Shown here: piece by piece, positions 1-22,672 of the stretch
Layout of the letters: each line of letters opens with the position of its first letter
Numbering within the stretch: the stretch's first letter is position 1
DNA from: Bacteroidales bacterium
Lineage (GTDB): Bacteria > Bacteroidota > Bacteroidia > Bacteroidales > UBA7960
Assembly (NCBI GenBank): GCA_035477775.1
Contig: DATIKH010000133.1
Coordinates: 49,673 to 113,672 of the forward strand
Direction of reading: 5' to 3'
DNA length: 64,000 bases
Notes under the pieces: generated by a model
Seen by the model: only the letters and a program-made list of their open reading frames with translations
What the model was told of the DNA's origin: nothing
The model's database searches: none
Made by a program: the position numbers and the translations under genes

Positions 1-2255
1 CCAATCCTCACATCGTCCAGGAACCAGACATGAGCATCTTCGCCTTCATATACAAAAGCCAGATAAATGGTATCATTATTAAATTCCGCAAGACTTACGG
101 TGTTTGCGCGCCAGCTGTCTTCTACCGCAGATGTGGTCCAGATTTCTACATAGTTATTATCGGCGGGATTCTGACTTCCTCTTGACACCCTGACGCTGTT
201 TTTGCCATACGATGCAGGGAACTGGTTTCTCGACCAGAAGGTAAGTTCTAAATCTGCACCCGGAGGGATGATTATGGCAGGGGTTACCAGCCAGCCTACT
301 TCTCTTGCTGCAGCGTTCTGACGATGAAAGGCAGAATAGGTTCCGGGAGTGGTATTGTTGGCAAGATTGGTAACTCGCCACTCAAAAACCGAAGCATCGG
401 GGTTATAGACCACCCAGCCTGTATTGTTAAACGTGCCTGTTTCAAAATCCTGCACATAAGGAAATGTATTGATAGTGGGTTCATAAACAGGAAGCGGAAA
501 CAGAGGCCCACCCTCAGGCACTGCCACAAAAAGACCAAATTCCGGCCCGTTGCTGTTTACGGCCGGGTTGAGGAACCCCGATGCAACCAAGGTAGCGGCA
601 ACACCATTCCCACCTTCAAGAGGAAGTTCGTAAGCCGCAACAACGGTACCTGCTAGATCACGAACCTCGATTACATTATTTTTGGGTTCAAGGGGAAGGT
701 ACTGTGAAAACTGACCAAATCCAATGTTTTCAATAAGCCGTCTGGACCCGACTCCAGTTTCCCAAATGCTTACCGGGGGTGCATCGGTAGCGCCATGAAA
801 CACCAACAAATCAATATTGGCAGGATTAGCCGCGGCTTCCCTCCCACGGTCATTTACAAAAAGCCTGAAGGGTTCTGCCGGTGTATAGCCCGTGGGGCTT
901 AGGTTGCCTGAGCCTACTATGATGTACGTTCTGTTTTCAATGAGGTTTACCGTTTGAGTAACCCCAGCCGCAATGGGGGCACCGAGTGGGGTGACCGAAA
1001 TATTATGGTCAACTCCTGCCGGTAGCGTTAAAAATGGAGAGGCCGTCCTGAACGGAATGCTATCAAACAGCATAACACCATTCAGATAAACATCAATAGT
1101 ATCCAAAGCTAAATCGGCCGAGTTATGTATTAACTGAACCCTGGCTGTCGGGGGCGCCCCTTCCGGCCTAAGCTCCTGTACAACAAAGCCAGTGCCTACC
1201 ACATGCGCCAAAATCCGAATGTTGCCGTTCTCAAGCACCCCTACAGAGTTTGTGGCAGTGAGGCTGGCATGACGAGGGCCAATTACAAAGTCATGTACCG
1301 TTCTTTCGTTAAGTATAGCTGTACTGGTAATGGCATTAATTGCTTCAACTACAGTGGCGCCTTCCGTAATATCAACGATCTGATACCTTGCCCCGGCCGG
1401 AGCCCCTACCGGAAGCGTAGAGTTTATTGTATAGGTCAAATACCTTCTGCCACCAAAGTAAAAAATATTCGGGTCGTAGGCGGCCGCATTGATGACGGTA
1501 GTAGGTATTTCGGCCTGAATTACACCTGTTGAGTTGGCAATTATAATCCCACTGTTGTTGCTGGTAACCAAAAACAGGTCAGGCTCACCGGGTATTGGGT
1601 TAAAAATGCCATGGTTGTTAAAAACAGCTTCGGGACTTATGGTGATTAACGCGGGCGTGTCGGGATTGGTGATAACGCCGTTTTCAAAATTCCAAACCCG
1701 AAATTCTATTCCGGGGGCCAAATTGATGTGTGCAATAAGTTTACCATTTGTATTTGGATCGCCAATAATGGAAAATGCATCGCCCAGACGGCCTGCCAGA
1801 GCTGTATAGCTCAAAACCAATTCAGGTTCGCTGGTAAGGCTCCTCCACCTGTATAATCTGAATGGACCGGCGCCCCAGCCGGTACCTTGTGGGTTTGTCG
1901 TTAGGCTTGAAACGAAAATATCATCGCCCACTGTCCTTACATAGTTTATCGGAAATGTTTGTACAGCTAAAATGCCGGTACCCATAGGTAAAGAAAATGG
2001 CGGGGCATCGGGATTTTGGCTGTCCCAAACCCATACATTTGTGGTCACTTCGCGCGATGGAACAATTACCCACCTGTTTTGATAAAGTGCTGCAGACCTT
2101 GCATTGCCTCCGGTACCGATTTGGGTGGGTAAAGCAGTGCCGGTTCTGTTTATAAGGGTGGATATGTCGAAATGGGGCTGAGCATAGCTTTGAAAGCTAT
2201 ATAGCAGCAGCAAAGACAAAAACCACAACATGCTTGCACGTAATTTTTTTTTCAT
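1..2255 (-). CDS. Secreted multidomain protein, 3' end cut by the window edge (signal peptide; N-terminal region of unknown fold; DUF4397-like repeats; choice-of-anchor-J / cleaved-adhesin-like domain)
   Basis: Absent from the ORF track because it has no in-window stop. I read the minus frame (codons ending at 2255, 2252 ...) line by line. No tta/cta/tca triplet falls in that frame from 2255 to 1, so 751 codons are open. ATG at 2255..2253 gives MKKKLRASMLWFLSLLLLYSFQSYAQP (signal peptide). About 495..1150 encodes VQLIHNSADLALDTIDVYLNG ... DLLVFHGATDAPPVSIW (duplicated DUF4397-type motif). 1..480 encodes FPYVQDFETGTFNNTGWVV ... GWLVTPAIIIP ... IYLAFVYEGEDAHVWFLDDVRI (choice-of-anchor-J type). 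Confidence 0.8.
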   Translation of the reverse strand, partial: MKKKLRASMLWFLSLLLLYSFQSYAQPHFDISTLINRTGTALPTQIGTGGNARSAALYQNRWVIVPSREVTTNVWVWDSQNPDAPPFSLPMGTGILAVQTFPINYVRTVGDDIFVSSLTTNPQGTGWGAGPFRLYRWRSLTSEPELVLSYTALAGRLGDAFSIIGDPNTNGKLIAHINLAPGIEFRVWNFENGVITNPDTPALITISPEAVFNNHGIFNPIPGEPDLFLVTSNNSGIIIANSTGVIQAEIPTTVINAAAYDPNIFYFGGRRYLTYTINSTLPVGAPAGARYQIVDITEGATVVEAINAITSTAILNERTVHDFVIGPRHASLTATNSVGVLENGNIRILAHVVGTGFVVQELRPEGAPPTARVQLIHNSADLALDTIDVYLNGVMLFDSIPFRTASPFLTLPAGVDHNISVTPLGAPIAAGVTQTVNLIENRTYIIVGSGNLSPTGYTPAEPFRLFVNDRGREAAANPANIDLLVFHGATDAPPVSIWETGVGSRRLIENIGFGQFSQYLPLEPKNNVIEVRDLAGTVVAAYELPLEGGNGVAATLVASGFLNPAVNSNGPEFGLFVAVPEGGPLFPLPVYEPTINTFPYVQDFETGTFNNTGWVVYNPDASVFEWRVTNLANNTTPGTYSAFHRQNAAAREVGWLVTPAIIIPPGADLELTFWSRNQFPASYGKNSVRVSRGSQNPADNNYVEIWTTSAVEDSWRANTVSLAEFNNDTIYLAFVYEGEDAHVWFLDDVRI

Positions 2256-2296
2256 TGGGATAGAAATTTGGTTGGATTTAAAATCGAAAATCAGTT

Positions 2297-2327
2297 CAAA
2301 TATAAAAAAAATTTTTGAGTGACCAAA
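2297..2327 (-). promoter_or_regulatory. Bacteroidota sigma-A type promoter for the 1..2255 gene (TTTG-N19-TATATTTG)
   Basis: The minus strand reads TTTG (2327..2324), a 19-nt spacer, then TATATTTG (2304..2297). This fits the published -33 TTTG / -7 TAnnTTTG consensus at the preferred spacing. The box ends 41 nt upstream of the ATG at 2255. Confidence 0.5.
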
Positions 2328-2631
2328 AGGAGCTGATTTTTTACCAATGCAAACGCATGAAGCAGGTAATAAAAATAATCAGGTTCAGTTATGGTTGGCT
2401 ATAGTTTTTACAGGTTCTTGCGTTTTTTTTGCTAACGGCTGATATATTGAATGGCAGCAGGCCCTGAACCGGTTCTCACTATAGGAGCAGAAAGCAGTCG
2501 TAAAATAAGCCTTCAGGGTGCAATCAATTTTTTCGAAATAAAACCAATAATGATCAGCAAATTAAAAACAGGCGCATAAAAAAAACCAAGTGACAGAAGG
2601 CTTGCCTGACTAGCAAGTGAAAATTTATTGT

Positions 2632-2665: not shown

Positions 2666-2689
2666 TCTCCTTCTAAAAAAAACCAGAAA

Positions 2690-5164
2690 CTATTTTACTA
2701 CCTGAAGGCGTTTGGTATGTAAACCCGTCTGGGTTTTAATCTGTACAAAATAAATACCGTACTTCAGGTCGCCTACATTTACCAAATGGTTATTTCCTGA
2801 GGCCGTTGCGGAATAAACTACCTGACCGAGCATGTCGATTATGCGAACCTCACTGATCATTTCGTTTGCTGCAATGTTGAGTACCGTCCTGGCAGGATTT
2901 GGAAATAAATTAATAGCAGTAGCTGTTTCGGTAATAACAGGCACTGCGGTGGCGCCGGGCTGCGAGCCGAACACATCATTCACCGTCATAGGACCGGTTA
3001 CAATTACCTGGCGGTTGGGTTCTCCTGGCCATTCGCCCGCATTCCAATTTGCTGCATTAAAGTATTTGTATTGGTAGGTGCCGGCTGGGAGATTGAGTCT
3101 CTTTGAAAAAAAGAAAACATTCTCAGGATCGGCATCCATACTTTGAAGTGCGGGGATTTCGCCAGGTCTTGCCCAGTTAATGCCCGGGAAATTTCCTGTG
3201 ATAAAGATGGTATTGCCCCCAGGTATAAAACCTGGCATGTGCCGAATGTCAACCCTGAATGTAACCTCGTGTCTGATTTGGGTAAGGGTAACATTTACAG
3301 TTCGGTCGGCACCTGAAACAACAACCTGTCCCGAAGCACTTTGGTAACCATCTCTGGAAATGGTAAACTGATGGGTGCCATTGGGCAAGGCAACAACATA
3401 TACTCCGGGTTGCTGCGCAACTCCATTAATACTTACTGTTGCTCCAGCCACATTGGCGTTATCCTGGTCTCTCACTACAAATGTAACATTATAGAAAACC
3501 ACCACGGGCAGGGAAAGGCCTTGGGTTATCAGCCAGTTGTTGGGCGAGACCGGGTTGTTGTTTGCAAGCCTTGAGCGGCTTATCATATGGGGCTGGTTGT
3601 TGGTAACTCCATAGAACCAGGTGCGGCCATCGCTGTCGGCATCTACAGCCATCCAGCCCTGAGGCAGCCAATCGGGGTTTATGGGCGAAACATTGCCTGC
3701 GCTAAAGTCTTCTGACAAAATCTGTGCCGGGGTGTCGCCGGTTCTGGTTGCAATAACTCCAACATTGTCGATAACCAGGCGCTCCATGCCGGTTACGTTG
3801 TGGTGGCGGAATGCGACCCTCACATCGGAGCTGTGAAACCCCGAAATATCGACCGAGCGTCTCTGGTAAATAAAGGGTTCGACCGTGGTGCCTAAGGTTT
3901 CTTCAAATACTTTCACAAAATCTGCCTCGTTGAAAGTATATGCTCCCGCCGGCACCCTGGCTACCCATACGCTGTAATGCTCCCTTCGAAGCAGGGGATC
4001 GGTAGCCGTTGATGCAACATCCCACGATAGATTAATGTTGTTGAAGAGGCCCGGATCCCTGATCATTTCAACATTTACAAAAACGTTTCTATCCACCACT
4101 GTTACAATGCCCTGGGTTGGATAGAAACCTGATCGGGAAACGGTAAAAGGATAGAAGCCCGGTGCGGCATTGAAGGTGTATTGCCCTGCCGGCCTGGCCA
4201 CTCCATCAATGGTTAATACGGCGTCGGTAATCAGTTCGCCTCCAGCATCAGCTACTGTAAAGGTTACCAAAAACTGAGGGTCGGTACCGGCTGTGAGGGT
4301 TACCGGAATGGTGAAGTTTGCAGTATCGACCAAAAATGTGCCGGTGCCGCTAACATAGCCGGTTTTCTGCACGAAATACCTGAATTCGCCGGGGAAAAGC
4401 TTGAAGTTGTAGGTACCGGCGGGATATTCTTTGCCATTGAGTGCAATGACGGCATCGGCTATTGCCCCTGCGGCGTCGGCCACCGTAAAGTTAACATCAA
4501 ACCTATCGACAATGCGTAAATCGTCGAAATACACTGTGCCGGTAACGCCGGCAGCTTGTCCGCTCCATGCCAACTGGAAGCTGTCGAAAAAAATATGTGT
4601 TCCATCCCATATTCCATTTCCGTTTACCCATCCAATTACCTGATCCTCAGGCAGGCGCCATGTAATTCGCCTCCAGCCTGTCCAGTCGATGGTAAACCAC
4701 TGCGAACCTTCCAGATGATTGTTTCCTGCCTCCCTGGTCATAAACCGAAATTTGTTTCCGGATCCATCGCCATAAACAAATACTTCTATGGCCTGGTGAC
4801 GTAAAAACGTGCGTTCCACTACATTTGCATTGCTTGCCGGGATGTGCTGCCTTATAAGGTGGCTTCCGGGTGCAACAGGTCTGGCAGGATCCCACCGGTA
4901 AGTTAACCTCATTGAACCGGTACTGCGAGTAGCAGGGTTAACGACTATAGTATCGCGGGCCATGACGGTTGCCGGAGCCCCTTCATGCTCAAGAATGATG
5001 CCTACGGTACTTCCGCTCCCCTGGGGGAGCCACCAGAGTGTAACGCCAGTTTCAAAATTGTCGATTGACCTGAAATTGGGGTTTGAACCACTTGCAGGGC
5101 CAGCAAGACTGATAAAGAAGAGGGCAAGCATTGCTGCCGGTAAGAAAGTAATCCTTGTTTTCAT
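2690..5164 (-). CDS. T9SS-sorted modular protein with no recognisable catalytic domain (beta-sandwich module shared with the neighbouring amidase, 3 CarboxypepD_reg/PEGA-like repeats, permuted cleaved-adhesin-like domain, CBM20/48-like module, T9SS CTD)
   Basis: The ORF track gives 2690..5236. I trimmed the start to the ATG at 5164 (MKTRITFLPAAMLALFFISLAGPASG, a signal peptide) because 5213..5237 is the terminator stem of the upstream gene. Domain reading is by eye. HEVTFRVDIRHMPGF..TIFITGNFPGINW..PAGTYQYKYF..WPGEPNRQV resembles starch/glycogen-binding E-set modules (tentative). Confidence 0.85.
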   Translation of the reverse strand: MKTRITFLPAAMLALFFISLAGPASGSNPNFRSIDNFETGVTLWWLPQGSGSTVGIILEHEGAPATVMARDTIVVNPATRSTGSMRLTYRWDPARPVAPGSHLIRQHIPASNANVVERTFLRHQAIEVFVYGDGSGNKFRFMTREAGNNHLEGSQWFTIDWTGWRRITWRLPEDQVIGWVNGNGIWDGTHIFFDSFQLAWSGQAAGVTGTVYFDDLRIVDRFDVNFTVADAAGAIADAVIALNGKEYPAGTYNFKLFPGEFRYFVQKTGYVSGTGTFLVDTANFTIPVTLTAGTDPQFLVTFTVADAGGELITDAVLTIDGVARPAGQYTFNAAPGFYPFTVSRSGFYPTQGIVTVVDRNVFVNVEMIRDPGLFNNINLSWDVASTATDPLLRREHYSVWVARVPAGAYTFNEADFVKVFEETLGTTVEPFIYQRRSVDISGFHSSDVRVAFRHHNVTGMERLVIDNVGVIATRTGDTPAQILSEDFSAGNVSPINPDWLPQGWMAVDADSDGRTWFYGVTNNQPHMISRSRLANNNPVSPNNWLITQGLSLPVVVFYNVTFVVRDQDNANVAGATVSINGVAQQPGVYVVALPNGTHQFTISRDGYQSASGQVVVSGADRTVNVTLTQIRHEVTFRVDIRHMPGFIPGGNTIFITGNFPGINWARPGEIPALQSMDADPENVFFFSKRLNLPAGTYQYKYFNAANWNAGEWPGEPNRQVIVTGPMTVNDVFGSQPGATAVPVITETATAINLFPNPARTVLNIAANEMISEVRIIDMLGQVVYSATASGNNHLVNVGDLKYGIYFVQIKTQTGLHTKRLQVVK
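2693..2923 (-). other. Type-A T9SS C-terminal sorting domain (Por_Secre_tail)
   Basis: The C-terminal ~77 aa read INLFPNPARTVLNIAANEMISEVRIIDMLGQVVYSATASGNNHLVNVGDLKYGIYFVQIKTQTGLHTKRLQVVK. This is the canonical (F/Y)PNPA ... G.Y ... K.. pattern. Confidence 0.85.
3281..3496 (-). repeat. Third copy of an intragenic ~70-aa CarboxypepD_reg/PEGA-like repeat
   Basis: YNVTFVVRDQDNANVAGATVSINGVAQQPGVYVVALPNGTHQFTISRDGYQSASGQVVV aligns by eye with the two copies at 4064..4501. Confidence 0.65.
4064..4501 (-). repeat. Two tandem ~70-aa CarboxypepD_reg/PEGA-like repeats
   Basis: FDVNFTVADAAGAIADAVIALNGKEYPAGTYNFKLFPGEFRYFVQKTGYVSGTGTFLV is followed by FLVTFTVADAGGELITDAVLTIDGVARPAGQYTFNAAPGFYPFTVSRSGFYPTQGIVTV. 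Shared pattern: .V.FTVAD..G..I.DAV....G...PAG.Y.F...PG.....V...G(Y/F). Confidence 0.7.
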
Positions 5165-5204
5165 AGGAGTTCGATTTTGGTTTAAATTAGATTCTTGTAA
5201 AGAT

Positions 5205-5237
5205 AAAAAAAAGGTGAGAGATGTCGAATCTCCCACC
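5205..5237 (-). terminator. Rho-independent terminator downstream of the amidase gene
   Basis: The minus-strand RNA reads GGUGGGAGAU-UCGAC-AUCUCUCACC followed by U8 (plus-strand A8 at 5205..5212). The stem is 10 bp; the single plus-strand mismatch becomes a G-U pair on the transcribed strand. It starts 12 nt after the TAA at 5250..5252. Confidence 0.75.
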
Positions 5238-5249
5238 TCCCTTTGAGAA

Positions 5250-8200
5250 TTATTTTATTATTTGTATGCGGCTTTGTTTCCAGCCACCATTGCCCAAAAT
5301 TCTGACAATGTAGGTACCCAGGTCAAGCTCCTGGATATTTATCCTGATTTGATTGCCAAAGGGCTCGCGCGATAACACCATCCGCCCATCCATTGCATAC
5401 ACTTCGACCCTTTTTATAATTTCATCAGAAACAATTGTGATGTAACTTCTGGCGGGATTAGGAAAGACTCTAAAACCTGACGGATCGGGCTCTGCAATAT
5501 TGGTAACATTGGGCCTGACTGTAACGGTTGCATTAACCACCAACGGGATTTCGGGGGTAGTCTGAGCAACCAAAGCCGGAAGCACGAATGTGCCGGTAGC
5601 GGTGTAGTTGCCTTCTAAGGCAGGGTTGTAACCTGCAATACTCCAGGTTAAGGCAACCAGGTGTGAGTTTCCGAACGAATCTAAAATGGTGGTGCTGGGC
5701 TGCAACTCGCTCAGGACAGTCGACTCAGGGGTGCCAAATGCCACAGAAACATTTTCGACCGGGGTAATGGATGCCAAAACCGGTGTTTGTCGAAGCACTT
5801 CCACCTGGTCGAGCATCAGCATATAACCGTCGTCAGAAACGTATTGTATTGCAATCCGGATAACCTGGCCTGCATACCTTCCGAGGAAGTACGAAAACGG
5901 CGTCCATTCTGGCGGGGCCTCAACATGATTTCCCGGAGATTTGAGAATAAAGGATGCCGGGTTGAATGAAAATGCTTGATTGTTATCGACCGATACCAGA
6001 ACCCTGAATTGCTCAAGGCCCCTTGGGCTTGTTTTAGACTTGGCAAAAAACCGAAGTACACTGTTTTCAGTTGCTCTGATTTGCCTGGAAATCAACCACT
6101 TATTATTAACAGTGCCGGTCTGACCCGCCATGGCAATCAGGTACTTGGCGCCATCAACCGGCGGGTGGTTTTCAACAATTGGTTCGGGAGTGGTCAGGGC
6201 AGGGTTCATAACCTTGAATGCGAAAGGGGTTCCTGCTCCGGGAAAAATAAACCCTACGGGATAATTAGTGGGTTGAGCATGAACATCTGCGGTTCGCCAG
6301 GGAAGTAGATCGGTTGTAAAGTTTTCATAGGTTTCGAAGCCTTCCAACAGGGTTGTTGGGAAATTTGGCGGGGAGCGTTTTACATGCCTCAGGTCATCAA
6401 AGAAAATTGAACCCCTGAGGTTTGCTCCGGGCGCATGCCTTAAATGAAATCCATCAATAAAAAAGTTACTGCCTTCAAGAATACCATTTCCGTTTACCCA
6501 ACCAAAAACCGGATCGCGCGAAAGATCCCATGAAACAAGTTTCCATCCCACCCAGTTTATGGGTATCCAGGCACTTCCTTCTAGATGATTCAGTCCGTCG
6601 CGAATCATTAACCTGAGCTCGTTGCCCGAACCATCGCCAAAAACAAACACCTGAAGCACATCGCTATTAGTGAACCTAATGGCATTTTGATCGGCTCCTG
6701 GCGGAATATGCTGCCTGATGTAAGGTGTTCCTGCAAACCCTTCCATCCAGGCATAATCCAGGCGCATGCTACCTGTGCTTCCGGTGGTGTGGTTTACGGT
6801 ACTTATATTGTGAAACCTTCCGGTGAGTTCGGTTACTATACCTGCAGTTTGCCCTGCCTGTTGGGGATTCCACCAACTTACTATGCCTGCATCGAACGCA
6901 TCAATGGTGGTTTTTTGGGTAATGGCCTGCTCGATCAGGTAAAAATTAAAGGTAAAAGCCTCTGTGAGGTTGTTGAAAGCATCGGAAAGTCCGGCGGCAA
7001 CATGTACCTTGTAAACCAAAGAAGGATTGAGGTCTTGGGTAGGGAAAAACTGCAAAACACTCCGCCCGTTTACAATACTGTGGCGGATCACACCAGGAAC
7101 TGGAGCCCCACCATTAGCCGGTGCAAGGGTAATGGTTTGAGCGCCAATACCCGCTTCAAGGACTGGTTCGTTGTAAACCAGCCTTATAATCGGCCTCAAT
7201 ACTCTGGCCGGCTCTTTTTCGGTCGGCCAGGAATCAACCAACATGGCAGGTGTATTATCCTGTTCGGCAGTGGTAAAGGAAATCACAAAATCGCCTCCTT
7301 CAAGTCCATTATTATCGCCATCGAGAAGCTGCCCGGTAAGCAATCCCCTTGCTATGCTTCCATCAATTCTAAGCTCATAATTGGTAACATAGTTTAGCTG
7401 AGCAGTATTGATTACCAGAGTAAATTCATCTGTCCAAGAATATGACAGAGCTGCATTCGGGGTAATTCTAATGGCATCAAGAACGCTTTGCTGATTCATT
7501 TTCCGACTGAAACGGATACTTACGGGGGTGCCCGGAACCAGGCCGGTCAACTGCCCTGCAGGCAATACTCTTTCAACCACAGGAGCCTTTGTTGAAGTAA
7601 GGAAAACATCCAGAAAACTCAGGTTTTGGGCAATATTGCCATTCGGGTTGGAGGCAATTACCAGACTGGTATCTAAAGGTTGAAAATAATCCGACGAGAA
7701 AACCACATTTACGGTTGATAAAGGCTCGAGGTTTTCGATAAAGAAAAAACCATTGCTCAGCAGTGAAGGGTCGTTGGTGAATCTGTGAAACAACGACTCA
7801 AAGGAATCGGTAACATATGTCTGATTACCGATTGTTACAGTAATTCCGTTGAGCGGTCTGTTGGTTTCGATATCTCTGATAAAACCAGTAGCAACACCAA
7901 TTGCGGGTTTTTGAAGGTTATGAAATTCAAGTATTGACCAGAGTGCTGCCAGTGCTTCCAATTTTTTCCATTCGGCATTCATGTTGCGCTGGTTCTGGGT
8001 GGGGTTTGTGTGAAAGCCCGCCTCGCTGAGCAACGATGCCATTTGCGAAACCCTGTTCACAAATAAAAAAGGAAATTGGTTTGTGTGGGTTGGTATGTTT
8101 CCTTGTAAAAAAACCCGGTCGGCAAAATTACCTGTAGTGGGTATGCGCATTGCCCCGGGAAGGTGTACATTCTTCAATGCACCGAATGCGGCTCCGCCTT

Positions 8201-8651: not shown

Positions 8652-8664
8652 TTTTGTTTGTTAT

Positions 8665-13718: not shown

Positions 13719-14513
13719 TTACTTTATGATTCTGAAATTTCGCGAAGAAGTGGTGCTGGCATTGGTTTTACCGATTACAGCAACTGATTCAATGGTTCCG
13801 CGTGAGTTGTCCTCTACAGTGGCTTCATCTATATGCTGGGCCAACCTTGCTCGGGTAAGGTTGGTGCGTACAAATTCAAACCCGAAAGGTGTGAGGTTTC
13901 CAGTAAATGCGCCTGTTTGTGGATTAAACTCAAAGCATAGAACAGGTGCACCAGGAAACAAGCTTAACACATGGGCCCTGTTCATTTGCAGGCTGAGTTT
14001 TTGTACAATGGCATTAAAAGCTGGGTTGCTCATTTGTTCGATAAGCAACGCACCTGTTGAGGTCAGCATTCCGAATCCACTACCGACGTAGAAAGGGCAA
14101 ATGATCACATATGCGTTTTCAATTGTTTGGTAAAAATCGTTGAGCGATTCACCTGCTCTCGGAAAGGATTCGATCAGGGTTCGCTCAATAAATATTGTAT
14201 CGGTCAGGTGATTAGCCGATAGCCTGACGGTTTGTCCGCTCACGGTAAATGCCATCCTTACCGAAAAATTCTGAATCCTGAATCCCTCGTAAAAGAACGA
14301 AATGGTGCTTATATCGTCGTGCTCCGACCAGCTTACGGTGCGAAGCATAAGGGTGTCGGTTACTTTTGCATCTTGCATTTGGGCAAGCAGGTTAAAAGGC
14401 TTTATTAAGCCTGTGGGGGTGCCCAATTCGGCCAGGTTGTCGTTCTTATCGCAGGAAGCAAAAAAAACACCAATAGCCGCTAATAAAAGAAAAGATTTGA
14501 ATAACATCTTCAT
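13719..14513 (-). CDS. Hypothetical lipoprotein (SusE/F position)
   Basis: The track ORF 13719..14666 overlaps the susD 3' end. An internal ATG at 14513 gives MKMLFKSFLLLAAIGVFFASCDKNDN (lipoprotein signal) and lies 14 nt downstream of the susD stop. I recognise no family motif. Confidence 0.6.
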   Translation of the reverse strand: MKMLFKSFLLLAAIGVFFASCDKNDNLAELGTPTGLIKPFNLLAQMQDAKVTDTLMLRTVSWSEHDDISTISFFYEGFRIQNFSVRMAFTVSGQTVRLSANHLTDTIFIERTLIESFPRAGESLNDFYQTIENAYVIICPFYVGSGFGMLTSTGALLIEQMSNPAFNAIVQKLSLQMNRAHVLSLFPGAPVLCFEFNPQTGAFTGNLTPFGFEFVRTNLTRARLAQHIDEATVEDNSRGTIESVAVIGKTNASTTSSRNFRIIK

Positions 14514-16014: not shown

Positions 16015-19000
16015 TTAAAATTTAAGATTTAAACCAAATGTTATAGATCTGCCGTGGGGTACCTGAAAAAAATCTACACCCATAGTGCCTGCTCCACTAC
16101 CACCTCCGGCATCCGGTCCGGCATTATTTACCTCGGGATCTCCCCCTGAATAATTGGTTAGAAGCAAAGCGTTTTGCAGCGATATGTTTATGCTGGCCTC
16201 TTTTAAGCCTAACCTAGCAATTAAGGAATTTGGAAGAAAATAATTCAGGCCCACATTACGCAAGCGTACCCAGAAAACTTCTTCAACGAAATTGGTTCCT
16301 GCAAGAATGTAATTATTAATGAAAAAGTTTTGATCCAGGGTGACAGGTGTAGTGTTCGGGGCAAAAGTACCATCCGGAAGCTCTACTACTCCATCAAAAA
16401 TAAACTCCTGGTTTCGGTATTTTCCTACCATATTGTGTTGGCCTGTTGAAACAAGAAACTGTCTGGTGGCATTAAGCAGTTGAGCACCATAAGTTCCATC
16501 AACCAAAAATGAAAATTCCAGGTTTCTGAATCTAAAATTATTGTTCAGCCCAAAATAAAACCTTGGTTCGCGGTTTCCTATAAATCTTTTCTGATTGTCA
16601 ATTCTTGGGAAACCATTATTGTCAACGATTACTTTACCTTCGCTGTTTCGCAGGTAATCGGTACCTACAATTCCAAACAGGGGTTTACCAATCCATGAGC
16701 TGGCAATTGCTTGGGTAGAGACTTGGCCGAAGGTTACAGGAAACTCAACCAGGTCGCCAAAAAGTTCGGTCAACCGGGAGCGGTTTCCAAACCCATTGAG
16801 GGTTACCTCCCAATTAAGATCCTCCCTCCTTATTATCCTGCTGCTGATAAGAAGTTCAATACCCCTGTTTTCTACCGAGCCTGAGTTTACTGCCTGCAAT
16901 ATAGCGCCGGTAACCGGTGTCACCCTTGGCTGAATTATTTGGTCGCTCGACACTCTGTTGTAATAGGTCATGTCTATGGTAAAGAGACCGTCCCAAAGCC
17001 TTAAGTCGGCACCGATTTCAAATTCTCTGGTAATTTCTGGTTTTAGGAGCGGGTTTCCAGCAAAGGCTCCATTTCTCCATCCGCCTCCGATACCAAAAAA
17101 CTGCTCTAGGGTTTGTGTTAGGCGATGTGGAGGGGCGTCCTTACCAACACTGGCAACACTTGCCCTTATTTTTCCAAAAGAAAAAATGCGGGCGGCCCTT
17201 CCATCGAGCAACTCACTAAAGATAAATGCTGTACTGATTGAGGGATAAAAGAATGAGCGGTTTTGCAAGGGAAGGGTCGAAGACCAGTCATTGCGTCCAG
17301 TAAAATTCAGAACTAAAAATCGGTCGTAATCAATGGTTAGGTTACCAAATACACCTATAATTCTCCTATTGGATGTTGCCTGATTATTTCGCACCACGCG
17401 CAGGTTGTTTATGGAGTGCAGGGCAGGGTTGCGGAAGCGCTCACCCTCAACGCTGGTATTGCGTGCAAAATTAGACTGAATGTTTTTCCCTACCATGGTA
17501 GTAACTCGCAGTCTATCTGTGAATTCATTATCGGCAACTGCCAGTAATGTAGATGTTATTTTCTCGCTTTCGCGATTAAGCTCACTTATGGATCCCTCAA
17601 AGTCAGTTCCTTCCGATCCGGGCTCCTGAACAGATTTTAGGTGCTGCTGAAAATAGTCGCGCCCGGCAGTATAATTAAAAGATAGCCAATCTAAAGCCTG
17701 GAAAGTAAGATTAATGGTGTTGATATTGCGGCTTACGTTATCGGTTCTAACCTGATGAAAAGCGCTCCACATGGGATTATCGGGGACTTCGGCAAGATTG
17801 CCGCTTACGGGTATCCAAACATTCCGTTCTGAGCCATCGGGGTTACGGTAATCGATCATATTATCCCAAACCGGCCAGCGGTAAAGATCTCTTAGCCAAC
17901 CACCGCTTGAACTGAATATACCAAGCCGGTTATTAGTCCTGACTATGTTAGAGGTAGTGGTGACCGAAATGCGGTCACTGATGTTTACTGTTCCTGATAG
18001 GAAAGCTGAGTTTCGTCCAAAGAAAGTATTGGGTACTATGCCTCTATCCCCCAAACTCGACAGCGATAAAAAATAGGTGAGTTTTGAGGTACCTCCGCTT
18101 ACATTAGCGTCAATCTTATTAGCCATTCCGGTTTGGAAATAGTTATTTAGGTTGTCATGTACCTGATCGCTTCGCCTTAATGGGGGTCCCCAATGCGAGA
18201 ACGTTCTTGGGTGGAAAATTCCTGCCCCTCCTGTTGTATAAAACTGTTGTGTGTCGTGCAACCAACCCACCTGCGAAATGGTGGAAGAAGTTGATAGGCC
18301 AACAGAAACGACACCCTCTTGTCCGCGTCTGGTAGTAATGATTATTGCACCATTGGCAGCATCGATGCCGTAAAGCGCAGCCGCCGCAGCCCCTTTCAAT
18401 ACCGTAACCGATTCAATGTCGTTTGGGTTAAGGTCGGCAATCCGGTTGGTGGTTCCCCTTATGGAGGCATTTGAAACAGGAACTCCATCGATTACAAACA
18501 ATGGCTGATTGTCTCCATCAACAGAGGTTGCCCCGCGCAAAATAATTTCTGAAGAAGACCCGGGTGCTCCTCCTGTAGAGCTAATCTGTACCCCCGAAAC
18601 CCTTCCTTGAAGCGCATTCACAACATTTTCCTGACGTGAAGCTCTAATAGCATCAGAATCAACGCTCTGAACATTGTAGGTAAGAGTCCGCTCCTCACGT
18701 GCTATACCCAGAGCGGTAACCACTACTTCTTGCAGTGCAGCTGCTTCGGGTTGGAGTACCACATTAATGATGGTTCGATCCCCTACAATGGTTTCATAGG
18801 TCTCCATACCAACAAAACGAAACACCAGCACATCGCCCGACGAAGCATTGATCCGGAATTGTCCCTCCAGATCGGTGGTTGTGCCAATGGTCGTTCCTTT
18901 AATTAAAACGGTAACCCCGATAAGTTGAGTGCCATCCAAGGCATCAGTTACCGTTCCGGTAATCTGCCTGGCCTGTCCGTGCAACCCAAGCGTCGTGAAG

Positions 19001-19035
19001 ATCAAAAGACCTAAAAAAACAAAGATCTTCTTCAT
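16015..19035 (-). CDS. susC: SusC/RagA-family TonB-dependent outer-membrane transporter
   Basis: 1006 aa. N-terminal carboxypeptidase-regulatory-like domain ITGTVTDALDGTQLIGVTVLIKGTTIGTTTDLEGQFRI. Plug region (VVVTALGIAREERTLTY, IESVTVLKGAAAAALYG). C-terminal beta-barrel ending ...ITFGLNLKF. No N-terminal STN/anti-sigma signalling extension is visible. Confidence 0.9.
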   Translation of the reverse strand: MKKIFVFLGLLIFTTLGLHGQARQITGTVTDALDGTQLIGVTVLIKGTTIGTTTDLEGQFRINASSGDVLVFRFVGMETYETIVGDRTIINVVLQPEAAALQEVVVTALGIAREERTLTYNVQSVDSDAIRASRQENVVNALQGRVSGVQISSTGGAPGSSSEIILRGATSVDGDNQPLFVIDGVPVSNASIRGTTNRIADLNPNDIESVTVLKGAAAAALYGIDAANGAIIITTRRGQEGVVSVGLSTSSTISQVGWLHDTQQFYTTGGAGIFHPRTFSHWGPPLRRSDQVHDNLNNYFQTGMANKIDANVSGGTSKLTYFLSLSSLGDRGIVPNTFFGRNSAFLSGTVNISDRISVTTTSNIVRTNNRLGIFSSSGGWLRDLYRWPVWDNMIDYRNPDGSERNVWIPVSGNLAEVPDNPMWSAFHQVRTDNVSRNINTINLTFQALDWLSFNYTAGRDYFQQHLKSVQEPGSEGTDFEGSISELNRESEKITSTLLAVADNEFTDRLRVTTMVGKNIQSNFARNTSVEGERFRNPALHSINNLRVVRNNQATSNRRIIGVFGNLTIDYDRFLVLNFTGRNDWSSTLPLQNRSFFYPSISTAFIFSELLDGRAARIFSFGKIRASVASVGKDAPPHRLTQTLEQFFGIGGGWRNGAFAGNPLLKPEITREFEIGADLRLWDGLFTIDMTYYNRVSSDQIIQPRVTPVTGAILQAVNSGSVENRGIELLISSRIIRREDLNWEVTLNGFGNRSRLTELFGDLVEFPVTFGQVSTQAIASSWIGKPLFGIVGTDYLRNSEGKVIVDNNGFPRIDNQKRFIGNREPRFYFGLNNNFRFRNLEFSFLVDGTYGAQLLNATRQFLVSTGQHNMVGKYRNQEFIFDGVVELPDGTFAPNTTPVTLDQNFFINNYILAGTNFVEEVFWVRLRNVGLNYFLPNSLIARLGLKEASINISLQNALLLTNYSGGDPEVNNAGPDAGGGSGAGTMGVDFFQVPHGRSITFGLNLKF

Positions 19036-19084: not shown

Positions 19085-19930
19085 TTATTCACCAAGCCTC
19101 TCGTAAGCTTCCAATGCATTTTTTACTGATCCGTACTTTAGCAGCAAATCCCTTGCTTTTACCGAATCAAGGCTAAGTTCTTCCATAAGCATGCGGGTAC
19201 CGCGTAGCACCAACTTTTGGTTTGTAAGCTGCATATTTACCATTTTATTCCCTTTTACCCGCCCCAACTTAATCATTATTGTTGTGGTAATCATGTTCAG
19301 AATCATCTTTTGGGCGGTTCCTGCCTTGAGCCTTGTGCTTCCGGTAACAATCTCGGGGCCTACAATGGCTTCAATAGGGTATTCGGCTTCGCGCGAAACG
19401 AGTGAATTGGGATTGCAGGTAATACATCCGGTAAGAATTCCGTTTTCGCGTGCCTTTCTCAGGCCTCCAACCACATAAGGCGTTGAGCCTGATGCTGCAA
19501 TTCCAATAACTGTGTCGAGCGTATTTATGTTGCGCTCTTTCAGCTCTTCCCAAGCTTTATCCTGGTCATCTTCGGCAGCCTCAACCGGATTTCGCAATGC
19601 CCTGTCGCCTCCGGCAATCAACCCTATAACCAGACCCTGGGGTGCACCAAAAGTGGGCGGAAGCTCCGAGGCATCCAATACACCCAAACGACCACTTGTA
19701 CCTGCACCCAAATAAAAAAGGCGGCCCCCGTTGCGCATTCGCTCAATAATCTGACAAATCAAAGCCTCAATTTGGGGCAAGGCCTTACGCACCGCTATAT
19801 GAACCTTGGCATCTTCGCTGTTGATAGAATCAATTAGCTTCTTCACAGTCATCTTCTCAAGGTTTTCAAATTGCGAAGGCGACTCGGTTATGCTAAGTTC
19901 AAATTTTATTTTTTTATCCCTGCCCGACAT
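19085..19930 (-). CDS. murQ: N-acetylmuramic acid 6-phosphate etherase
   Basis: GGRLFYLGAGTSGRLGVLDASELPPTFG, IGLIAGGDRALRNPVEAAEDD, IGIAASGSTPYV and VTGSTRLKAGTAQKMILNMITT align block for block with E. coli MurQ as I remember it. Confidence 0.93.
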   Translation of the reverse strand: MSGRDKKIKFELSITESPSQFENLEKMTVKKLIDSINSEDAKVHIAVRKALPQIEALICQIIERMRNGGRLFYLGAGTSGRLGVLDASELPPTFGAPQGLVIGLIAGGDRALRNPVEAAEDDQDKAWEELKERNINTLDTVIGIAASGSTPYVVGGLRKARENGILTGCITCNPNSLVSREAEYPIEAIVGPEIVTGSTRLKAGTAQKMILNMITTTIMIKLGRVKGNKMVNMQLTNQKLVLRGTRMLMEELSLDSVKARDLLLKYGSVKNALEAYERLGE

Positions 19931-19947: not shown

Positions 19948-20790
19948 TTAATTATAAAATTTGTGAAACTCAATAAGGCCCAACATCGGATCCTTAATAA
20001 TTTTCCCAATGGTAAATCCACAATCGTGCGCCGCTTCTTTGAGTACTCCTTCAAAATGCCAGGCTATGCTTCCGGTAAAATGCACCGGGAGGCTTTGTGC
20101 CCGAGGGTATTGGGCTATGTTGCGGTTAAAAAACTCTTTGAATGAGCTTTTTACCAGTTGGTAAACAAACCCGTCGCTAATATGCTTTGAAAGAAACGGA
20201 GTAAAGGAAGCCAGATAACGATTAGGAAATGGCTTTCGGTAAACGCTTTCAAGAATCTCGGCCGTAGTTTGGCCAAATGTTTTCTCAAAACTTACCTGAA
20301 GATGCTCCGGAGCCTGATTTTTGAGAAAATCGGCTACCAGTTTACGGCCAAGAACTGCTCCGCTACCTTCGTCGCCTAAAATAAATCCTAGTGGCGAAAC
20401 ATGTTGTTTAATATTGACTCCATCGTAATAACATGAGTTGGAGCCGGTGCCTAATATTGCGGCAATCCCTTCGCTATGCCCGCATAAAGACCGGGCTGCT
20501 GCAAGCAGATCGCTTTCTACTTCAACCGAGGATACTTCAAAAAAGTTTTTAAGGACTGACGACAGCAGAGCCTTTTTCTCTGGATTGGCACAACCTGCTC
20601 CGTAAAAAAATATCTTCCGTATACCCTCACGCCCAAGTGTAAATTCCCCAGAGAGGGTAGAATAAATATCGTCGGCCGATTGGAAAAAAGGGTTTATGCC
20701 TGCAGTCTGACAGTTCATTTCAGGGATTTTTTCATCGGCAAGCAAAAACCAATTTGTCTTTGTCGATCCACTGTCAGCAATTAGCACCAT
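19948..20790 (-). CDS. BadF/BadG/BcrA/BcrD-type sugar kinase (GlcNAc/MurNAc kinase-like; same family as Tannerella MurK)
   Basis: N-terminus MVLIADSGSTKTNWFLL, then GAGC ... ILGTGSNSCYYDG ... ILGDEGSG, the ASKHA-fold phosphate and adenosine motifs. 280 aa. Its stop is 17 nt upstream of the murQ start. Substrate specificity cannot be read from the sequence. Confidence 0.75.
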   Translation of the reverse strand: MVLIADSGSTKTNWFLLADEKIPEMNCQTAGINPFFQSADDIYSTLSGEFTLGREGIRKIFFYGAGCANPEKKALLSSVLKNFFEVSSVEVESDLLAAARSLCGHSEGIAAILGTGSNSCYYDGVNIKQHVSPLGFILGDEGSGAVLGRKLVADFLKNQAPEHLQVSFEKTFGQTTAEILESVYRKPFPNRYLASFTPFLSKHISDGFVYQLVKSSFKEFFNRNIAQYPRAQSLPVHFTGSIAWHFEGVLKEAAHDCGFTIGKIIKDPMLGLIEFHKFYN

Positions 20791-20916
20791 AAAATTTAAA
20801 TCATTAAAATTCTATTCAAAAGTGATAACACTCAGGTTCAAGACCTTCGGCTTGGACGTATTACCAAAGCGCGATAAATGGCTTCAATACTAATATATCT
20901 AACTTTTGCTTACTTG

Positions 20917-20924
20917 CAAATTTA
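20917..20924 (-). promoter_or_regulatory. Candidate -7 box TAAATTTG upstream of the kinase-murQ-susC-susD transcription unit
   Basis: Plus-strand caaattta is TAAATTTG on the minus strand (matches TAnnTTTG), 127 nt upstream of the ATG at 20790. I found no good -33 TTTG at the preferred spacing. Confidence 0.3.
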
Positions 20925-21442
20925 AAGATAAAACCTAAAAGTTTTATAAAAATTTACGAAAATATAATCACTGCAGTCTGAAAGTATAATTTTAAGAGTG
21001 CTTAAAATATTTTAGAATAAAAGTCTTTCAGAACACATTATTAATTTAGCTATCTATATATTACGAATTAATACAGACCTTATCGAAAGCAAATTTTGAA
21101 TTTAATCCCAATACATATTTTCGCAAATCCAAAAAGATTCGATTATGAGAAATACTCCTAAAAGGTTGTAGTCTAATTATCCAGAAAGGCATTAAAAAGC
21201 TTAAAAATTCTGTCAATAAAAAGGACGAGTAGAAAATTCTACGCGCCCCTCAAGATTAGAGTTGTTCTTGAGGCAATCAAAAAGTCATAACCATTTAGCG
21301 GCTAAGCACAGCTATTTTACCTTTATCTCCTCTCGGCAGATAATAGATGTTTTGAAACAGGTTGAGAAAGCCTTTTAAGACCTTTTAAAACCTAAGATTA
21401 AGCAAAACATAAAGTAATTCAGGACATTTTGCCACCACTTGC

Positions 21443-22672
21443 CTAATAAAGAAAATATTTTTCCGCTCTTTTGATAAAGGCCGGTATCTCCTTTGTCCAG
21501 AGGGGCAGAATATCTTCTACCAGAAAACGTCTTCCGAATGCTTTGCGAACTTGGTCGGTGCCGCAAACTTTATCGAACATATCGAGACGGCTTTGGTGGG
21601 CTAATTCAAAAACGTTTTTCTCAGGGTGCAATTTTTTAAGCTCCTGCAAAAAATAAAATTGTAAAAGCGAAAGCGGGGCTTTTTGTGCATCGATTATGTG
21701 TACCTGCACTCCGTGTAACATTTTATTTTTCATATCGGTGTAGAAGGCGCGATAGTGAATGGGCCTGAAAATTACTCCTGGTATTTCCAGATTGTTTAAA
21801 CGATTGGACAACTCTGAAGCATTTCTGATCCAATCAATTGCAAAAGTCTGAAAAGGAAGTGTGTATCCAACACCAATATTTATTACATGCAACTCGCCCA
21901 GGATTCCAGAAGCCGGATAATAATAAGACGTGATGGCATGCGGTATATGAGGCGATGCAAGCACCCAATGCAGACCGGTCTCCTCGAAAGTCATGTTCCG
22001 CTCCCACCCCTGCATCTCAATTACAGTAAGCTTTGCCTGGATTCCATTAGCCAGCAGACGTTCGCCATTCAGAAACTTTGCAAGTTCTCCCACGGTAAAT
22101 CCATGCACATAAGGAATTGGAAATTGGCTAACAAAAGAGATGAAACCTTCCTTTACAAGAGGGCCTTCAAACTTGTTGCCTCCCAGCGGGTTGGGGCGAT
22201 CTAACACCATAAATTCAATTCCTTGCTCTGCTGCAGCCTCCATAGCCAAGCCTAAAGTGCTGATATAGGTATAGGAGCGTGAGCCTATGTCCTGTATGTC
22301 GTAAACCAGTATATCAATACCTTTTAGCATTTCTCGTGTCGGTTTACGAGTGCGGCCATAAAGGCTGTACATGGTTATGCCGGTAATAGGGTCTTTTTTA
22401 TCGTCAATTAACTCCCCTGCGGGGAACTCGCCACGCACTCCGTGTTCAGGGCCGAAAAGGGCTACAAGTTGTACCCCGGGAGCTTCATGCAAAATGTCGA
22501 TTGTTGATCGTAACTGGCTGTCAACACCGGTTGGATTGGTTATCAGCCCAACGCGTTTCCCCAGCAATGGTGCAAACCCTTTTTCGCGCAAAACATCAAT
22601 GCCTGGTTTTACCTGGCTAAAAACTAACATACTGTTAAAAATCAAAACTAATAAAACAACAGTTTTTTTCAT
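21443..22672 (-). CDS. namZ: DUF1343-family protein, NamZ-type exo-beta-N-acetylmuramidase homologue (periplasmic)
   Basis: Signal peptide MKKTVVLLVLIFNSMLVFSQ. Then GIDVL ... GKRVGLITNPTGV ... LFGPEHGVRG ... YSLYGRTRKPTREML ... ILVYDIQDIGSRSYTYISTL ... VLDRPNPLGG ... IPYVHGFTVGELA, the conserved blocks of DUF1343. The enzymatic call is by family membership only. Confidence 0.8.
   Translation of the reverse strand: MKKTVVLLVLIFNSMLVFSQVKPGIDVLREKGFAPLLGKRVGLITNPTGVDSQLRSTIDILHEAPGVQLVALFGPEHGVRGEFPAGELIDDKKDPITGITMYSLYGRTRKPTREMLKGIDILVYDIQDIGSRSYTYISTLGLAMEAAAEQGIEFMVLDRPNPLGGNKFEGPLVKEGFISFVSQFPIPYVHGFTVGELAKFLNGERLLANGIQAKLTVIEMQGWERNMTFEETGLHWVLASPHIPHAITSYYYPASGILGELHVINIGVGYTLPFQTFAIDWIRNASELSNRLNNLEIPGVIFRPIHYRAFYTDMKNKMLHGVQVHIIDAQKAPLSLLQFYFLQELKKLHPEKNVFELAHQSRLDMFDKVCGTDQVRKAFGRRFLVEDILPLWTKEIPAFIKRAEKYFLY

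Follow-up and report, generated by a model that had tools for sequence, protein, structure and literature searches.

A candidate polysaccharide utilization locus for the glycan backbone of exogenous peptidoglycan in a Bacteroidales bacterium

The described gene sets closest to the locus reported here are the ampG-lytB-namZ1-murT-murK-murQ cluster of Tannerella forsythia (Tanf_08345-08385), in which ampG and lytB are neighbours of namZ1 (bioRxiv 10.1101/2021.12.02.470905), and the murQ-murR-murP-amiE-nagZ-namZ operon of Bacillus subtilis. The published accounts of peptidoglycan scavenging by T. forsythia that we consulted name no outer-membrane importer and call the amidase for exogenous peptidoglycan 'so far unidentified'. 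Here we analyse a stretch of 64,000 nucleotides from a Bacteroidales bacterium (GenBank assembly GCA_035477775.1, contig DATIKH010000133.1, positions 49,673 to 113,672), hereafter the window, and describe a twelve-gene locus (positions 1-22672; coordinates are positions in the window throughout) that joins genes for the catabolism of N-acetylmuramic acid (MurNAc) to a SusC/SusD (SusCD) pair and to enzymes predicted to be exported by the type IX secretion system (T9SS). The locus is likely, at a probability that we put at about 0.7, to be a polysaccharide utilization locus (PUL) for the glycan backbone of exogenous peptidoglycan, and it offers explicit candidates for both the foreign-peptidoglycan amidase and the outer-membrane route that are lacking in these Tannerella accounts. 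We infer every function in the locus from sequence.

As in T. forsythia, the gene for a MurK-type kinase stands directly before murQ, a NamZ1-type enzyme of glycoside hydrolase family 171 (GH171) carries a signal peptide, and AmpG-like and SpoIID/LytB genes adjoin the locus; the logic is also the same, namely periplasmic processing of peptide-free glycan strands. By contrast, this locus is without MurT, no gene for an inner-membrane MurNAc transporter was found inside it (there is only an AmpG-like gene of the major facilitator superfamily (MFS) outside the window), and its catabolic genes are joined to SusCD, surface lipoproteins and a T9SS-exported amidase and GHL10 enzyme. The B. subtilis operon likewise combines an amidase, the exo-muramidase NamZ and MurQ for sequential dismantling of peptidoglycan and MurNAc catabolism. 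However, the phosphotransferase-system protein MurP, MurR and NagZ were not found in the window, and the present locus has in addition a Gram-negative layer for import across the outer membrane and a GHL10 enzyme that is endo-acting. The locus would work alike without being a member of that group. The amidases also differ: the one encoded here belongs to Amidase_3, whereas B. subtilis AmiE has a different fold. A preliminary description of this DNA had drawn a parallel with both clusters, which stands for the logic of amidase, NamZ, kinase and MurQ and fails for MurP, MurR, NagZ and MurT.

PULs assisted by the T9SS are already known. In the chitin locus of Flavobacterium johnsoniae, said to have been described by Larsbrink et al. 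in 2016, the T9SS-secreted ChiA reportedly works with SusCD pairs. That system resembles the present one in its T9SS-exported key depolymerase, its SusCD import and the related beta-1,4-linked backbone of the N-acetylglucosamine (GlcNAc) type, and differs in its enzymes, with GH18/GH20 there against Amidase_3, GHL10 and GH171 here, and NagK/NagA/NagB against MurK/MurQ. At the level of single enzymes, the GHL10 protein of the locus (G8) has its catalytic domain in common with Escherichia coli DigH and Clostridioides difficile Cwp19, and DigH, too, takes over after amidases, on strands that they have denuded. DigH is, however, a periplasmic lipoprotein of the divisome and Cwp19 a Gram-positive surface autolysin, whereas G8 is a 791-aa predicted T9SS cargo in a nutrient-uptake operon; a GHL10 enzyme thus turns up in a nutritional context, in contrast to its two characterized relatives with their housekeeping roles.

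All parts of the locus belong to known families. Their combination was unfamiliar to the author of the preliminary description, and full-text searches of the literature returned no experimental description of NamZ, MurQ, GH171 or peptidoglycan coupled to a SusCD PUL; subscription-only papers lay outside this coverage, and a prior description among them is possible. In guts, digesters, soils and seawater, few polymers of bacterial origin are as abundant as peptidoglycan. To our knowledge, PULs have been catalogued almost wholly for plant, algal, fungal and host glycans. If the broader proposal made below, of a widespread peptidoglycan locus, is right, the bacterial cell wall, as necromass or as prey, would take its place beside these glycans as a dedicated PUL substrate, and related loci in cultured Marinoscillum, Reichenbachiella, Pontibacter, Pedobacter and Sphingobacterium make the hypothesis directly testable.

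Gene content of the locus

The twelve genes are all encoded on the minus strand (Table 1), and we number them G1 to G12 in the order of transcription: NamZ, kinase, MurQ, SusC, SusD, G6, G7, the GHL10 enzyme, a PD40 protein, the amidase, G11 and G12. From the kinase (G2) to G11 the intergenic spacing is only 5-85 bp, with susC and susD 5 bp apart and the murQ gene 49 bp upstream of susC; 652 bp separate NamZ from the kinase, and 434 bp precede G12. Adjacent susC and susD genes, together with a co-localized GHL10 enzyme, a GH171 enzyme and two predicted surface lipoproteins, are features by which a PUL is recognized.

The preliminary description had listed most of this inventory, and profile hidden Markov model searches upheld its assignments, including those to Amidase_3, DUF1343/NamZ and MurQ. 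The co-orientation of the twelve genes was confirmed, as were the SusC/SusD pair with two lipoproteins in the SusE/F position (by TIGR04056, SusD-like_2 and lipoboxes), the NamZ homologue with a signal peptide (both NamZ domains exceed their gathering scores), the GHL10/YngK-like hydrolase-like protein, the MurQ etherase (equivalog cut-off passed, with matches to solved structures) and the MurNAc-L-Ala amidase (a score over the cut-off and aligned motifs). The predicted extracellular proteins with type-A T9SS sorting domains are G8, G10, G11 and G12, all of which match TIGR04183, and G11 and G12 fit the proposed binding type by their non-catalytic domains combined with sorting domains. Inspection of the protein sequences also agreed with the signal peptides and lipoboxes given there: cleavable signal peptides are present on NamZ, G8, G9, G10, G11 and G12 and missing from the kinase and MurQ, and a Cys lipobox followed by acidic residues is found on SusD, G6 and G7. 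The one gene that it had not named is the PD40 beta-propeller G9.

Table 1 Features of the locus and of the wider window
Feature	Position	Strand	Evidence or remark
G1, NamZ/GH171 exo-beta-N-acetylmuramidase homologue, signal peptide, predicted periplasmic	21443..22672	-	Pfam NamZ_N and NamZ_C
Non-coding NamZ/kinase gap, 652 bp, AT-rich	20791..21442	-	GC 0.39
G2, MurK-type MurNAc kinase, predicted cytoplasmic	19948..20790	-	match to MurK structures
G3, MurQ, MurNAc-6-phosphate etherase, predicted cytoplasmic	19085..19930	-	TIGR00274 equivalog
G4, SusC/RagA TonB-dependent outer-membrane transporter	16015..19035	-	TIGR04056 609 bits; SusC signature, Plug, barrel
G5, SusD-like lipoprotein	14528..16009	-	SusD-like_2 E 3e-40
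G6, 264-aa lipoprotein, SusE/F position	13719..14513	-	lipobox ...FFASC then DKNDN
G7, 532-aa lipoprotein, two PKD/Ig domains and six-bladed beta-propeller	12107..13705	-	lipobox LLISC then EKEDE
G8, 791-aa GHL10 (DigH/Cwp19-family) enzyme with T9SS type-A sorting domain	9663..12038	-	GHL10 E 4e-53; Por_Secre_tail
G9, PD40 (TolB-like) beta-propeller, signal peptide	8665..9624	-	PD40 repeats E 2e-24
G10, 1130-aa T9SS cargo with N-terminal Amidase_3	5250..8642	-	Amidase_3 51.9 bits; Por_Secre_tail 38.6 bits
Intrinsic-terminator-like hairpin, 17 pairs and T-run	5206..5244	-	directly 3' of amidase (G10) stop codon
G11, 824-aa T9SS cargo, binding-type	2690..5164	-	Cleaved_Adhesin/choice-of-anchor J, CarboxypepD_reg/PEGA, sorting domain
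Promoter-like motif, Bacteroidetes-type TTTG-N19-TAnnTTTG, upstream of G12	2297..2327	-	pattern search
G12, DUF4623 and DUF4397 protein, cut by window edge	1..2255	-	domain search
PorV and 1089-aa PorU-like Peptidase_C25, side by side	59106..63858	-	PorV E 2e-67; Peptidase_C25 E 3e-102

Predicted enzymes of MurNAc catabolism and strand trimming

The kinase G2 is 48% identical to T. forsythia MurK (structures 8oqw/8ow9; 257 bits, E 1e-75) and matches the MurK paralogue K1058 more weakly (8oqk; 220 bits, E 2.5e-64); solved structures that score higher are Porphyromonas gingivalis PG1100 and a Bacteroides thetaiotaomicron homologue, at about 284 bits. In MurK, structures have shown that the small residues S133-P134-L135 open the space in which the lactyl ether of MurNAc fits (PMC10465942). 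G2 aligns S132-P133-L134 with these residues, whereas K1058 has R-A at the first two positions. The sugar kinase had been labelled BadF/BadG-type in the preliminary description, and its identity as a kinase is supported by the MurK structures; on the Pfam family itself it scores weakly, with 26.3 bits on BcrAD_BadFG against a gathering score of 31.5.

MurQ (G3) reaches 311.9 bits on TIGR00274, for which the cut-off is 302, and 365.9 bits on NF003915, and it aligns with the MurQ crystal structures 4s12 (E 9e-72) and 4lzj (E 4e-68). The LDASE and AEDD motifs, which we take to carry the catalytic glutamates of MurQ, are present in this alignment. Together, these sequence comparisons make a strong case that the kinase and MurQ would convert MurNAc to GlcNAc-6-phosphate and D-lactate.

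NamZ (G1) matches NamZ_N with 280.7 bits (E 7e-84) and NamZ_C with 116.3 bits (E 3e-33). It aligns far better with BfNamZ1 of Bacteroides fragilis (PDB 4k05, 504 bits) than with BfNamZ2 (4jja, 160 bits), and BfNamZ1 groups with the disaccharide-releasing TfNamZ1 of T. forsythia (bioRxiv 10.1101/2021.12.02.470905). By these alignments, G1 is of the NamZ1 type, the disaccharide-releasing one. Its PEHG motif, which begins at residue 75 and holds the putative catalytic Glu (Glu92 of BsNamZ), is common to both B. fragilis structures.

Predicted exported depolymerases and surface proteins

Type-A sorting domains were called at the TIGR04183 cut-off of 23 bits, which G8 (37.1), G10 (39.4), G11 (50.6) and G12 (46.4 bits) all exceed. 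Genes for PorV and a PorU-like protein elsewhere in the window, which are not part of the locus, indicate that a T9SS exists in this genome.

G8 scores 181 bits on the GHL10 domain (PF02638), on which E. coli DigH itself scores 453 bits, and is 33% identical to DigH over 350 aa (E 1e-61). DigH (YddW) is a hydrolase specific for denuded glycans that acts after removal of the stem peptides by amidases, as a housekeeping enzyme of the divisome (PMC12288456). The best solved relative of G8 is Cwp19 (5oq2, E 2e-66), whose GHL10 domain has peptidoglycan lytic transglycosylase activity and which causes lysis (PMC6016235). Five aspartates of G8 (D185, D190, D191, D296 and D307) are conserved across 47 family sequences that include DigH, and the acidic motif FDDYFY is kept. 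The specificity of GHL10 had been put down as a gap in the preliminary description, a statement that does not hold, given that both characterized members act on peptidoglycan glycan strands. G8 is predicted to be an extracellular cleaver of such strands.

G10 carries, in order, Amidase_3, Big_5, a domain of about 190 aa in common with G11, choice-of-anchor J and the sorting domain; an alternative ATG start lies at 8651. The Amidase_3 score in Table 1 compares with a cut-off of 27 bits. Aligned to the AmiB/AmiC-type structures 3ne8, 4rn7 and 4bin, G10 keeps DQGH (49), the Glu in YSESEK (63), SIHSDA (119) and LLSEAGF (207), positions that would supply the zinc-binding His/Glu/His and the catalytic Glu of the Amidase_3 family. 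An exported amidase beside an exported DigH-like enzyme makes a coherent two-step depolymerization system.

Domain searches of G11 found no catalytic domain. Its residues 33-226 (window 4487-5068) are 45% identical (E 6e-44) to residues 582-764 of G10 (6357-6905), and this common domain, which has sub-threshold CBM_11-like matches only, may be an uncharacterized carbohydrate- or wall-binding module. A CBM20/48-like module had been described in one cargo protein; the CBM_20, AMPK1_CBM and X25 matches in G11 all fall under the Pfam gathering scores, and we do not count them in favour of a starch-like substrate. G12 is truncated in the window. On a metagenome contig that is 100% identical to window 1-9799 and runs past the window edge (L089), the complete protein is 910 aa long, with choice-of-anchor J and, at its end, a T9SS sorting domain.

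At the cell surface, domain searches of SusC (G4) found no STN signalling domain. G6 has no Pfam or NCBIfam match. AlphaFold models it, at pLDDT 83, as a beta-sandwich into which helices are inserted, and for this model Foldseek against the PDB returned only arrestin-like beta-sandwiches at TM-scores of at most 0.28, without a functional clue. The model of G7 (pLDDT 89) resembles YWTD-type propellers and the Bacteroides surface propeller lipoproteins BT1954, BT2095 and BT1487, the first two of which bind B12. We consider G7 a candidate surface glycan-binding protein, and both models would fit a role in surface binding.

Related loci across Bacteroidota

A genome scan for orthologues of the SusD protein (G5) confirmed 474 genomic stretches; the best 80 were inspected, and 79 loci were analysed with 10-kb flanks. 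The counts below refer to these loci, of which those within one clade are not independent. The orthologues, at 40-83% identity, come from Bacteroidales metagenome-assembled genomes (MAGs), Saprospiraceae, Pontibacter, marine Cytophagales, Sphingobacteriaceae and Chitinophagaceae; no Flavobacterium locus is among the best 79. A core of SusC, SusD, a lipoprotein of about 260 aa and a PKD/propeller lipoprotein of about 530 aa recurs in 73/79 loci. G7 itself is present in 73/79, and G6 was recovered by sequence seed in 50/79, with a gene for about 255-290 aa in the same slot in most others.

In 39/79 loci, MurQ is encoded no more than 10 kb away from the SusD orthologue, against a chance expectation, by our own estimate, of ~0.3/79 for a gene that is present once per genome of several Mb. 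Of eight clades, five show this linkage, namely Bacteroidales, Marinilabiliaceae, Pontibacter, marine Cytophagales and Sphingobacteriaceae. Roughly 20 of the 27 Bacteroidales MAG loci, with SusD identities down to 63%, keep the order kinase, MurQ, SusC, SusD, lipoprotein, PKD lipoprotein, GHL10, PD40 and amidase. In the four other clades, MurQ is re-associated with the same SusCD core in differing gene orders, and this repeated re-association argues for a functional link between the SusCD family and MurNAc-containing substrates.

Beyond MurQ, the core is linked in other Bacteroidota orders to NamZ, DigH-like enzymes, AmpG-like MFS proteins, GH3 and NagB. The Marinoscillum furvescens locus, for example, encodes an AmpG-like MFS protein, GH3, a DigH-like enzyme, SusC, SusD, the lipoprotein, the PKD lipoprotein, GHL10, kinase and MurQ, and a Reichenbachiella locus combines a DigH-like enzyme and Amidase_3 with the core, GHL10, an NagB fusion, kinase and MurQ. 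Cultured strains with related loci include Marinoscillum furvescens DSM 4134 (L068), Reichenbachiella agariperforans DSM 26134 (L070), Pontibacter locisalis KCTC 42498 (L037) and Sphingobacterium spiritivorum ATCC 33861 (L066). In Pontibacter, Sphingobacteriaceae and Chitinophagaceae, a GH18 lipoprotein occupies the enzyme slot, often with a DigH-like GHL10. The best solved relatives of this GH18 are chitinases (6xyz, 3co4), and on that ground we rejected an EndoH-type N-glycan enzyme as its identity. NamZ stands next to the same core in 13/26 Sphingobacteriaceae loci, mostly as a lipoprotein (L046, L048-L051, L055, L057, L058, L062, L063, L065, L066 and L078), and occurs only where there is a GH18 lipoprotein (13/33 GH18 loci versus 0/46 others). 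This pattern suggests that a GH18 and NamZ route may replace the GHL10 and amidase route in Sphingobacteriaceae.

We propose, tentatively and at slightly less than even odds, that the SusC-SusD-lipoprotein-propeller core defines a locus for the utilization of peptidoglycan (denuded glycan) that is widespread in several Bacteroidota orders. Such a locus would supply what MurNAc scavenging has lacked outside the cell and at the outer membrane, by means of a T9SS amidase and a DigH-like enzyme in one lineage and of a GH18 lipoprotein repurposed for the peptidoglycan backbone in another.

Several further genes recur around these loci. A G9-type PD40 gene lies between GHL10 and the amidase in 20/27 Bacteroidales relatives and in 3 Marinilabiliaceae loci (L010-L033, L084-L086). 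The same Marinilabiliaceae loci encode, between the PKD lipoprotein and GHL10, a NAGPA (phosphodiester glycosidase) protein of about 820 aa with a T9SS sorting domain (for example L085:14387-16840), an insertion that may point to phosphodiester-linked wall polymers. In Pontibacter and Sphingobacteriaceae, a protein of about 620 aa with Metallophos and a PQQ-like beta-propeller is encoded 3' of GH18 (L008:18468-20339, L062:15046-16911 and similar), and MurQ and an SSF-family transporter often come next. The SSF-family transporter follows MurQ in Sphingobacterium and in some Pedobacter and Pontibacter relatives. Regulators seen in relatives are DeoR (Pedobacter) and ECF/FecR (Saprospiraceae). 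In Bacteroidales relatives, the place upstream of the kinase that NamZ has in the window is taken by a divergent gene pair for a GT2 glycosyltransferase of ~490 aa and a protein of ~1030 aa with a Golvesin_C domain (L012:376-4935, with equivalents in L015-L022, L031, L033 and L038), which indicates that the NamZ adjacency is a recent rearrangement in this species.

Proposed pathway and alternative explanations

Read as a peptidoglycan PUL, the locus would work as follows. The T9SS-exported amidase G10 would strip stem peptides from foreign sacculi or wall debris outside the cell, as suggested by its family membership, its intact zinc and catalytic motifs and its sorting domain. The denuded strands would then be cut by exported G8, as a hydrolase or as a lytic transglycosylase, given its homology to DigH and Cwp19. 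By analogy with the PUL paradigm, G11, G12, G6, G7 and SusD would hold the substrate at the surface while SusC imports the oligosaccharides. In the periplasm, the NamZ1-type G1 would trim the strands, mainly to GlcNAc-MurNAc, because it is similar to BfNamZ1, which clusters with TfNamZ1. Speculatively, the AmpG-like permease beyond the window edge could take the disaccharide into the cytoplasm, where a hexosaminidase would free MurNAc, G2 would phosphorylate it and MurQ would yield GlcNAc-6-phosphate and D-lactate. The T9SS tags and the SusCD route speak for foreign rather than self peptidoglycan as the substrate. Compared with the pathway drawn in the preliminary description, peptide stripping, strand cutting, SusCD import, phosphorylation and the MurQ step are supported, whereas the release of free MurNAc in the periplasm is not, as no MurNAc transporter was found; a NamZ1-type enzyme and an AmpG-like permease suggest uptake of the GlcNAc-MurNAc disaccharide instead.

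A number of observations weigh against this interpretation. The dedicated regulator expected of a PUL is missing: domain searches of 1-22672 and its flanks found no hybrid two-component system (HTCS), SusR or extracytoplasmic function (ECF) sigma/anti-sigma pair. Neither the locus nor the rest of the window encodes an inner-membrane MurNAc transporter, NagZ/GH3/GH20, AnmK or NagA/NagB, and the AmpG-like gene outside it scores 170 bits against an NCBIfam cut-off of 350, has an insertion of about 200 aa and lies in convergent orientation. NamZ is found beside the kinase only in this species and in 0/27 Bacteroidales relatives. Comparison with solved structures gave SusD no close characterized relative (best match only 66 bits), and the models of G6 and G7 point to no ligand or substrate. 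In sister loci of Sphingobacteriaceae, a chitinase-like GH18 stands in place of GHL10, which makes the exact glycan of the family a putative one. In about one-third of the related loci, mainly from Pedobacter, Chitinophagaceae and Saprospiraceae MAGs and including several short contigs, the 10-kb flanks show a chitinase-like GH18 as the sole linked enzyme, or none at all, so the SusCD core may accept a broader range of GlcNAc-type oligosaccharides.

These last observations bear most directly on the possibility that the SusCD core targets some other GlcNAc-type glycan (chitin or chito-oligosaccharides, a modified amino-sugar polymer or glycoprotein glycans), with MurK/MurQ, the amidase and NamZ as general amino-sugar or cell-wall genes in the neighbourhood. 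The GH18 lipoprotein in the enzyme slot of Pontibacter, Sphingobacteriaceae and Chitinophagaceae loci, the several Pedobacter and Chitinophagaceae loci that have GH18 and are without MurQ, NamZ or GHL10 within 10 kb, and the weak CBM20/48/CBM11-like matches in G11 would all suit such a substrate. In the window locus itself, however, GH18, GH20 and chitin-binding modules are missing; the enzymes by which it could cleave glycans belong only to the GHL10 and GH171 families, whose characterized members act on peptidoglycan (PMC12288456, PMC6016235, PMC8054146); and MurQ and a kinase with the SPL pocket, which are specific for MurNAc, are encoded immediately upstream of susC. The restriction of NamZ to loci with GH18 also fits a GH18 that cuts the chitin-like backbone of peptidoglycan, and we regard another glycan as an unlikely substrate. 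The notion that co-orientation has merely juxtaposed unrelated units, that is, a MurNAc catabolic pair, a PUL for another substrate and T9SS adhesins, could draw on the gaps before the kinase and before G12, the terminator after the amidase gene and the lack of conservation of the NamZ adjacency in Bacteroidales relatives. It seems to us extremely improbable, because the order from kinase and MurQ through SusC to the amidase is kept in about 20 relatives and MurQ has rejoined the core in other arrangements in four further clades.

The locus might instead serve to recycle or remodel endogenous peptidoglycan, after the pattern of the AmpG pathway in E. coli or of the murQ operon in B. subtilis. 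MurK/MurQ, NamZ and AmpG-like and SpoIID/LytB proteins are classic recycling parts, and the E. coli divisome uses DigH for housekeeping (PMC12288456). We nevertheless consider recycling very unlikely: the T9SS tags predict that the amidase and the GHL10 enzyme are located at or outside the outer membrane, at a distance from the sacculus of the producing cell, uptake would run through SusCD with predicted surface lipoproteins, and a 1130-aa multi-domain amidase is unlike the periplasmic AmiA/B/C. The same exported enzymes could be turned on Gram-positive walls, which lie exposed, with help from adhesin-like proteins (Cleaved_Adhesin, choice-of-anchor J), and Cwp19 does cause lysis (PMC6016235), which raises the prospect of a mainly antagonistic or predatory device whose surface wall hydrolases kill neighbours and for which nutrient uptake is secondary. 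Yet an operon that ties these enzymes so closely to SusCD and MurK/MurQ speaks for consumption, DigH-type enzymes favour strands that are already denuded, and the locus encodes no means of breaking through the outer membrane of Gram-negative cells. Killing as the main purpose therefore strikes us as highly improbable, and it overlaps with foraging on foreign peptidoglycan rather than opposing it.

Probable transcription units and genomic surroundings

The 652-bp gap between NamZ and the kinase is presumed to hold the promoter region of the main operon. It has no credible open reading frame upstream of the kinase and no Rfam match, nor does any Rfam family match the window as a whole. Reading of the sequence shows a TAnnTTTG-type motif, TAAATTTG, near 20915 within this gap; a search with the full Bacteroidetes promoter pattern gave no match upstream of the kinase and one upstream of G12. 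The pattern (TTTG-N19-TAnnTTTG) is no more frequent in the window than by chance, and the motif before G12 is suggestive only. The hairpin that parts the amidase gene from G11 is the strongest terminator-like site in a 20-kb scan (5244-5206). Because of the gaps, this hairpin and the motif upstream of G12, we read the core operon as running from the kinase through the amidase, with NamZ, G11 and G12 as adjoining units that would each have signals of their own; NamZ is probably transcribed separately. Of the twelve-gene locus in the preliminary description, the common orientation is retained; the genes do not form a single tight operon, given the 652-bp and 434-bp gaps and the terminator.

Just beyond position 1 of the window, the same strain carries three genes convergent to G12 (L089:10485-16157). 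They encode a 937-aa GlcD/YdiJ-like FAD/FeS oxidase, the AmpG-family MFS protein (620 aa), about 6 kb beyond the edge, and a protein with a SpoIID/LytB domain whose gene is truncated where the contig stops. It is a speculation that the oxidase handles the D-lactate released by MurQ.

On the other side of the locus, the window from 22.7 to 64 kb was screened and contains no NagZ, GH20, NagA/NagB, MurT, AmpG or regulator; apart from PorU/PorV, its genes are of the housekeeping kind. Upstream of NamZ, at a distance of a few kb, are genes for an M13 (neprilysin-like) peptidase (25085-27130, plus strand) and an M16 peptidase (28283-29509, plus strand), for which a link to the use of stem peptides is conceivable. 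A 664-aa protein in which three LysM domains, which are peptidoglycan-binding modules, are joined to the periplasmic binding domain Peripla_BP_6 is encoded at 46490-48484 on the minus strand. A ParA/ParB gene pair (36720-38455, plus strand), followed by DUF5683, DapB and signal peptidase genes, marks an ordinary chromosomal context.

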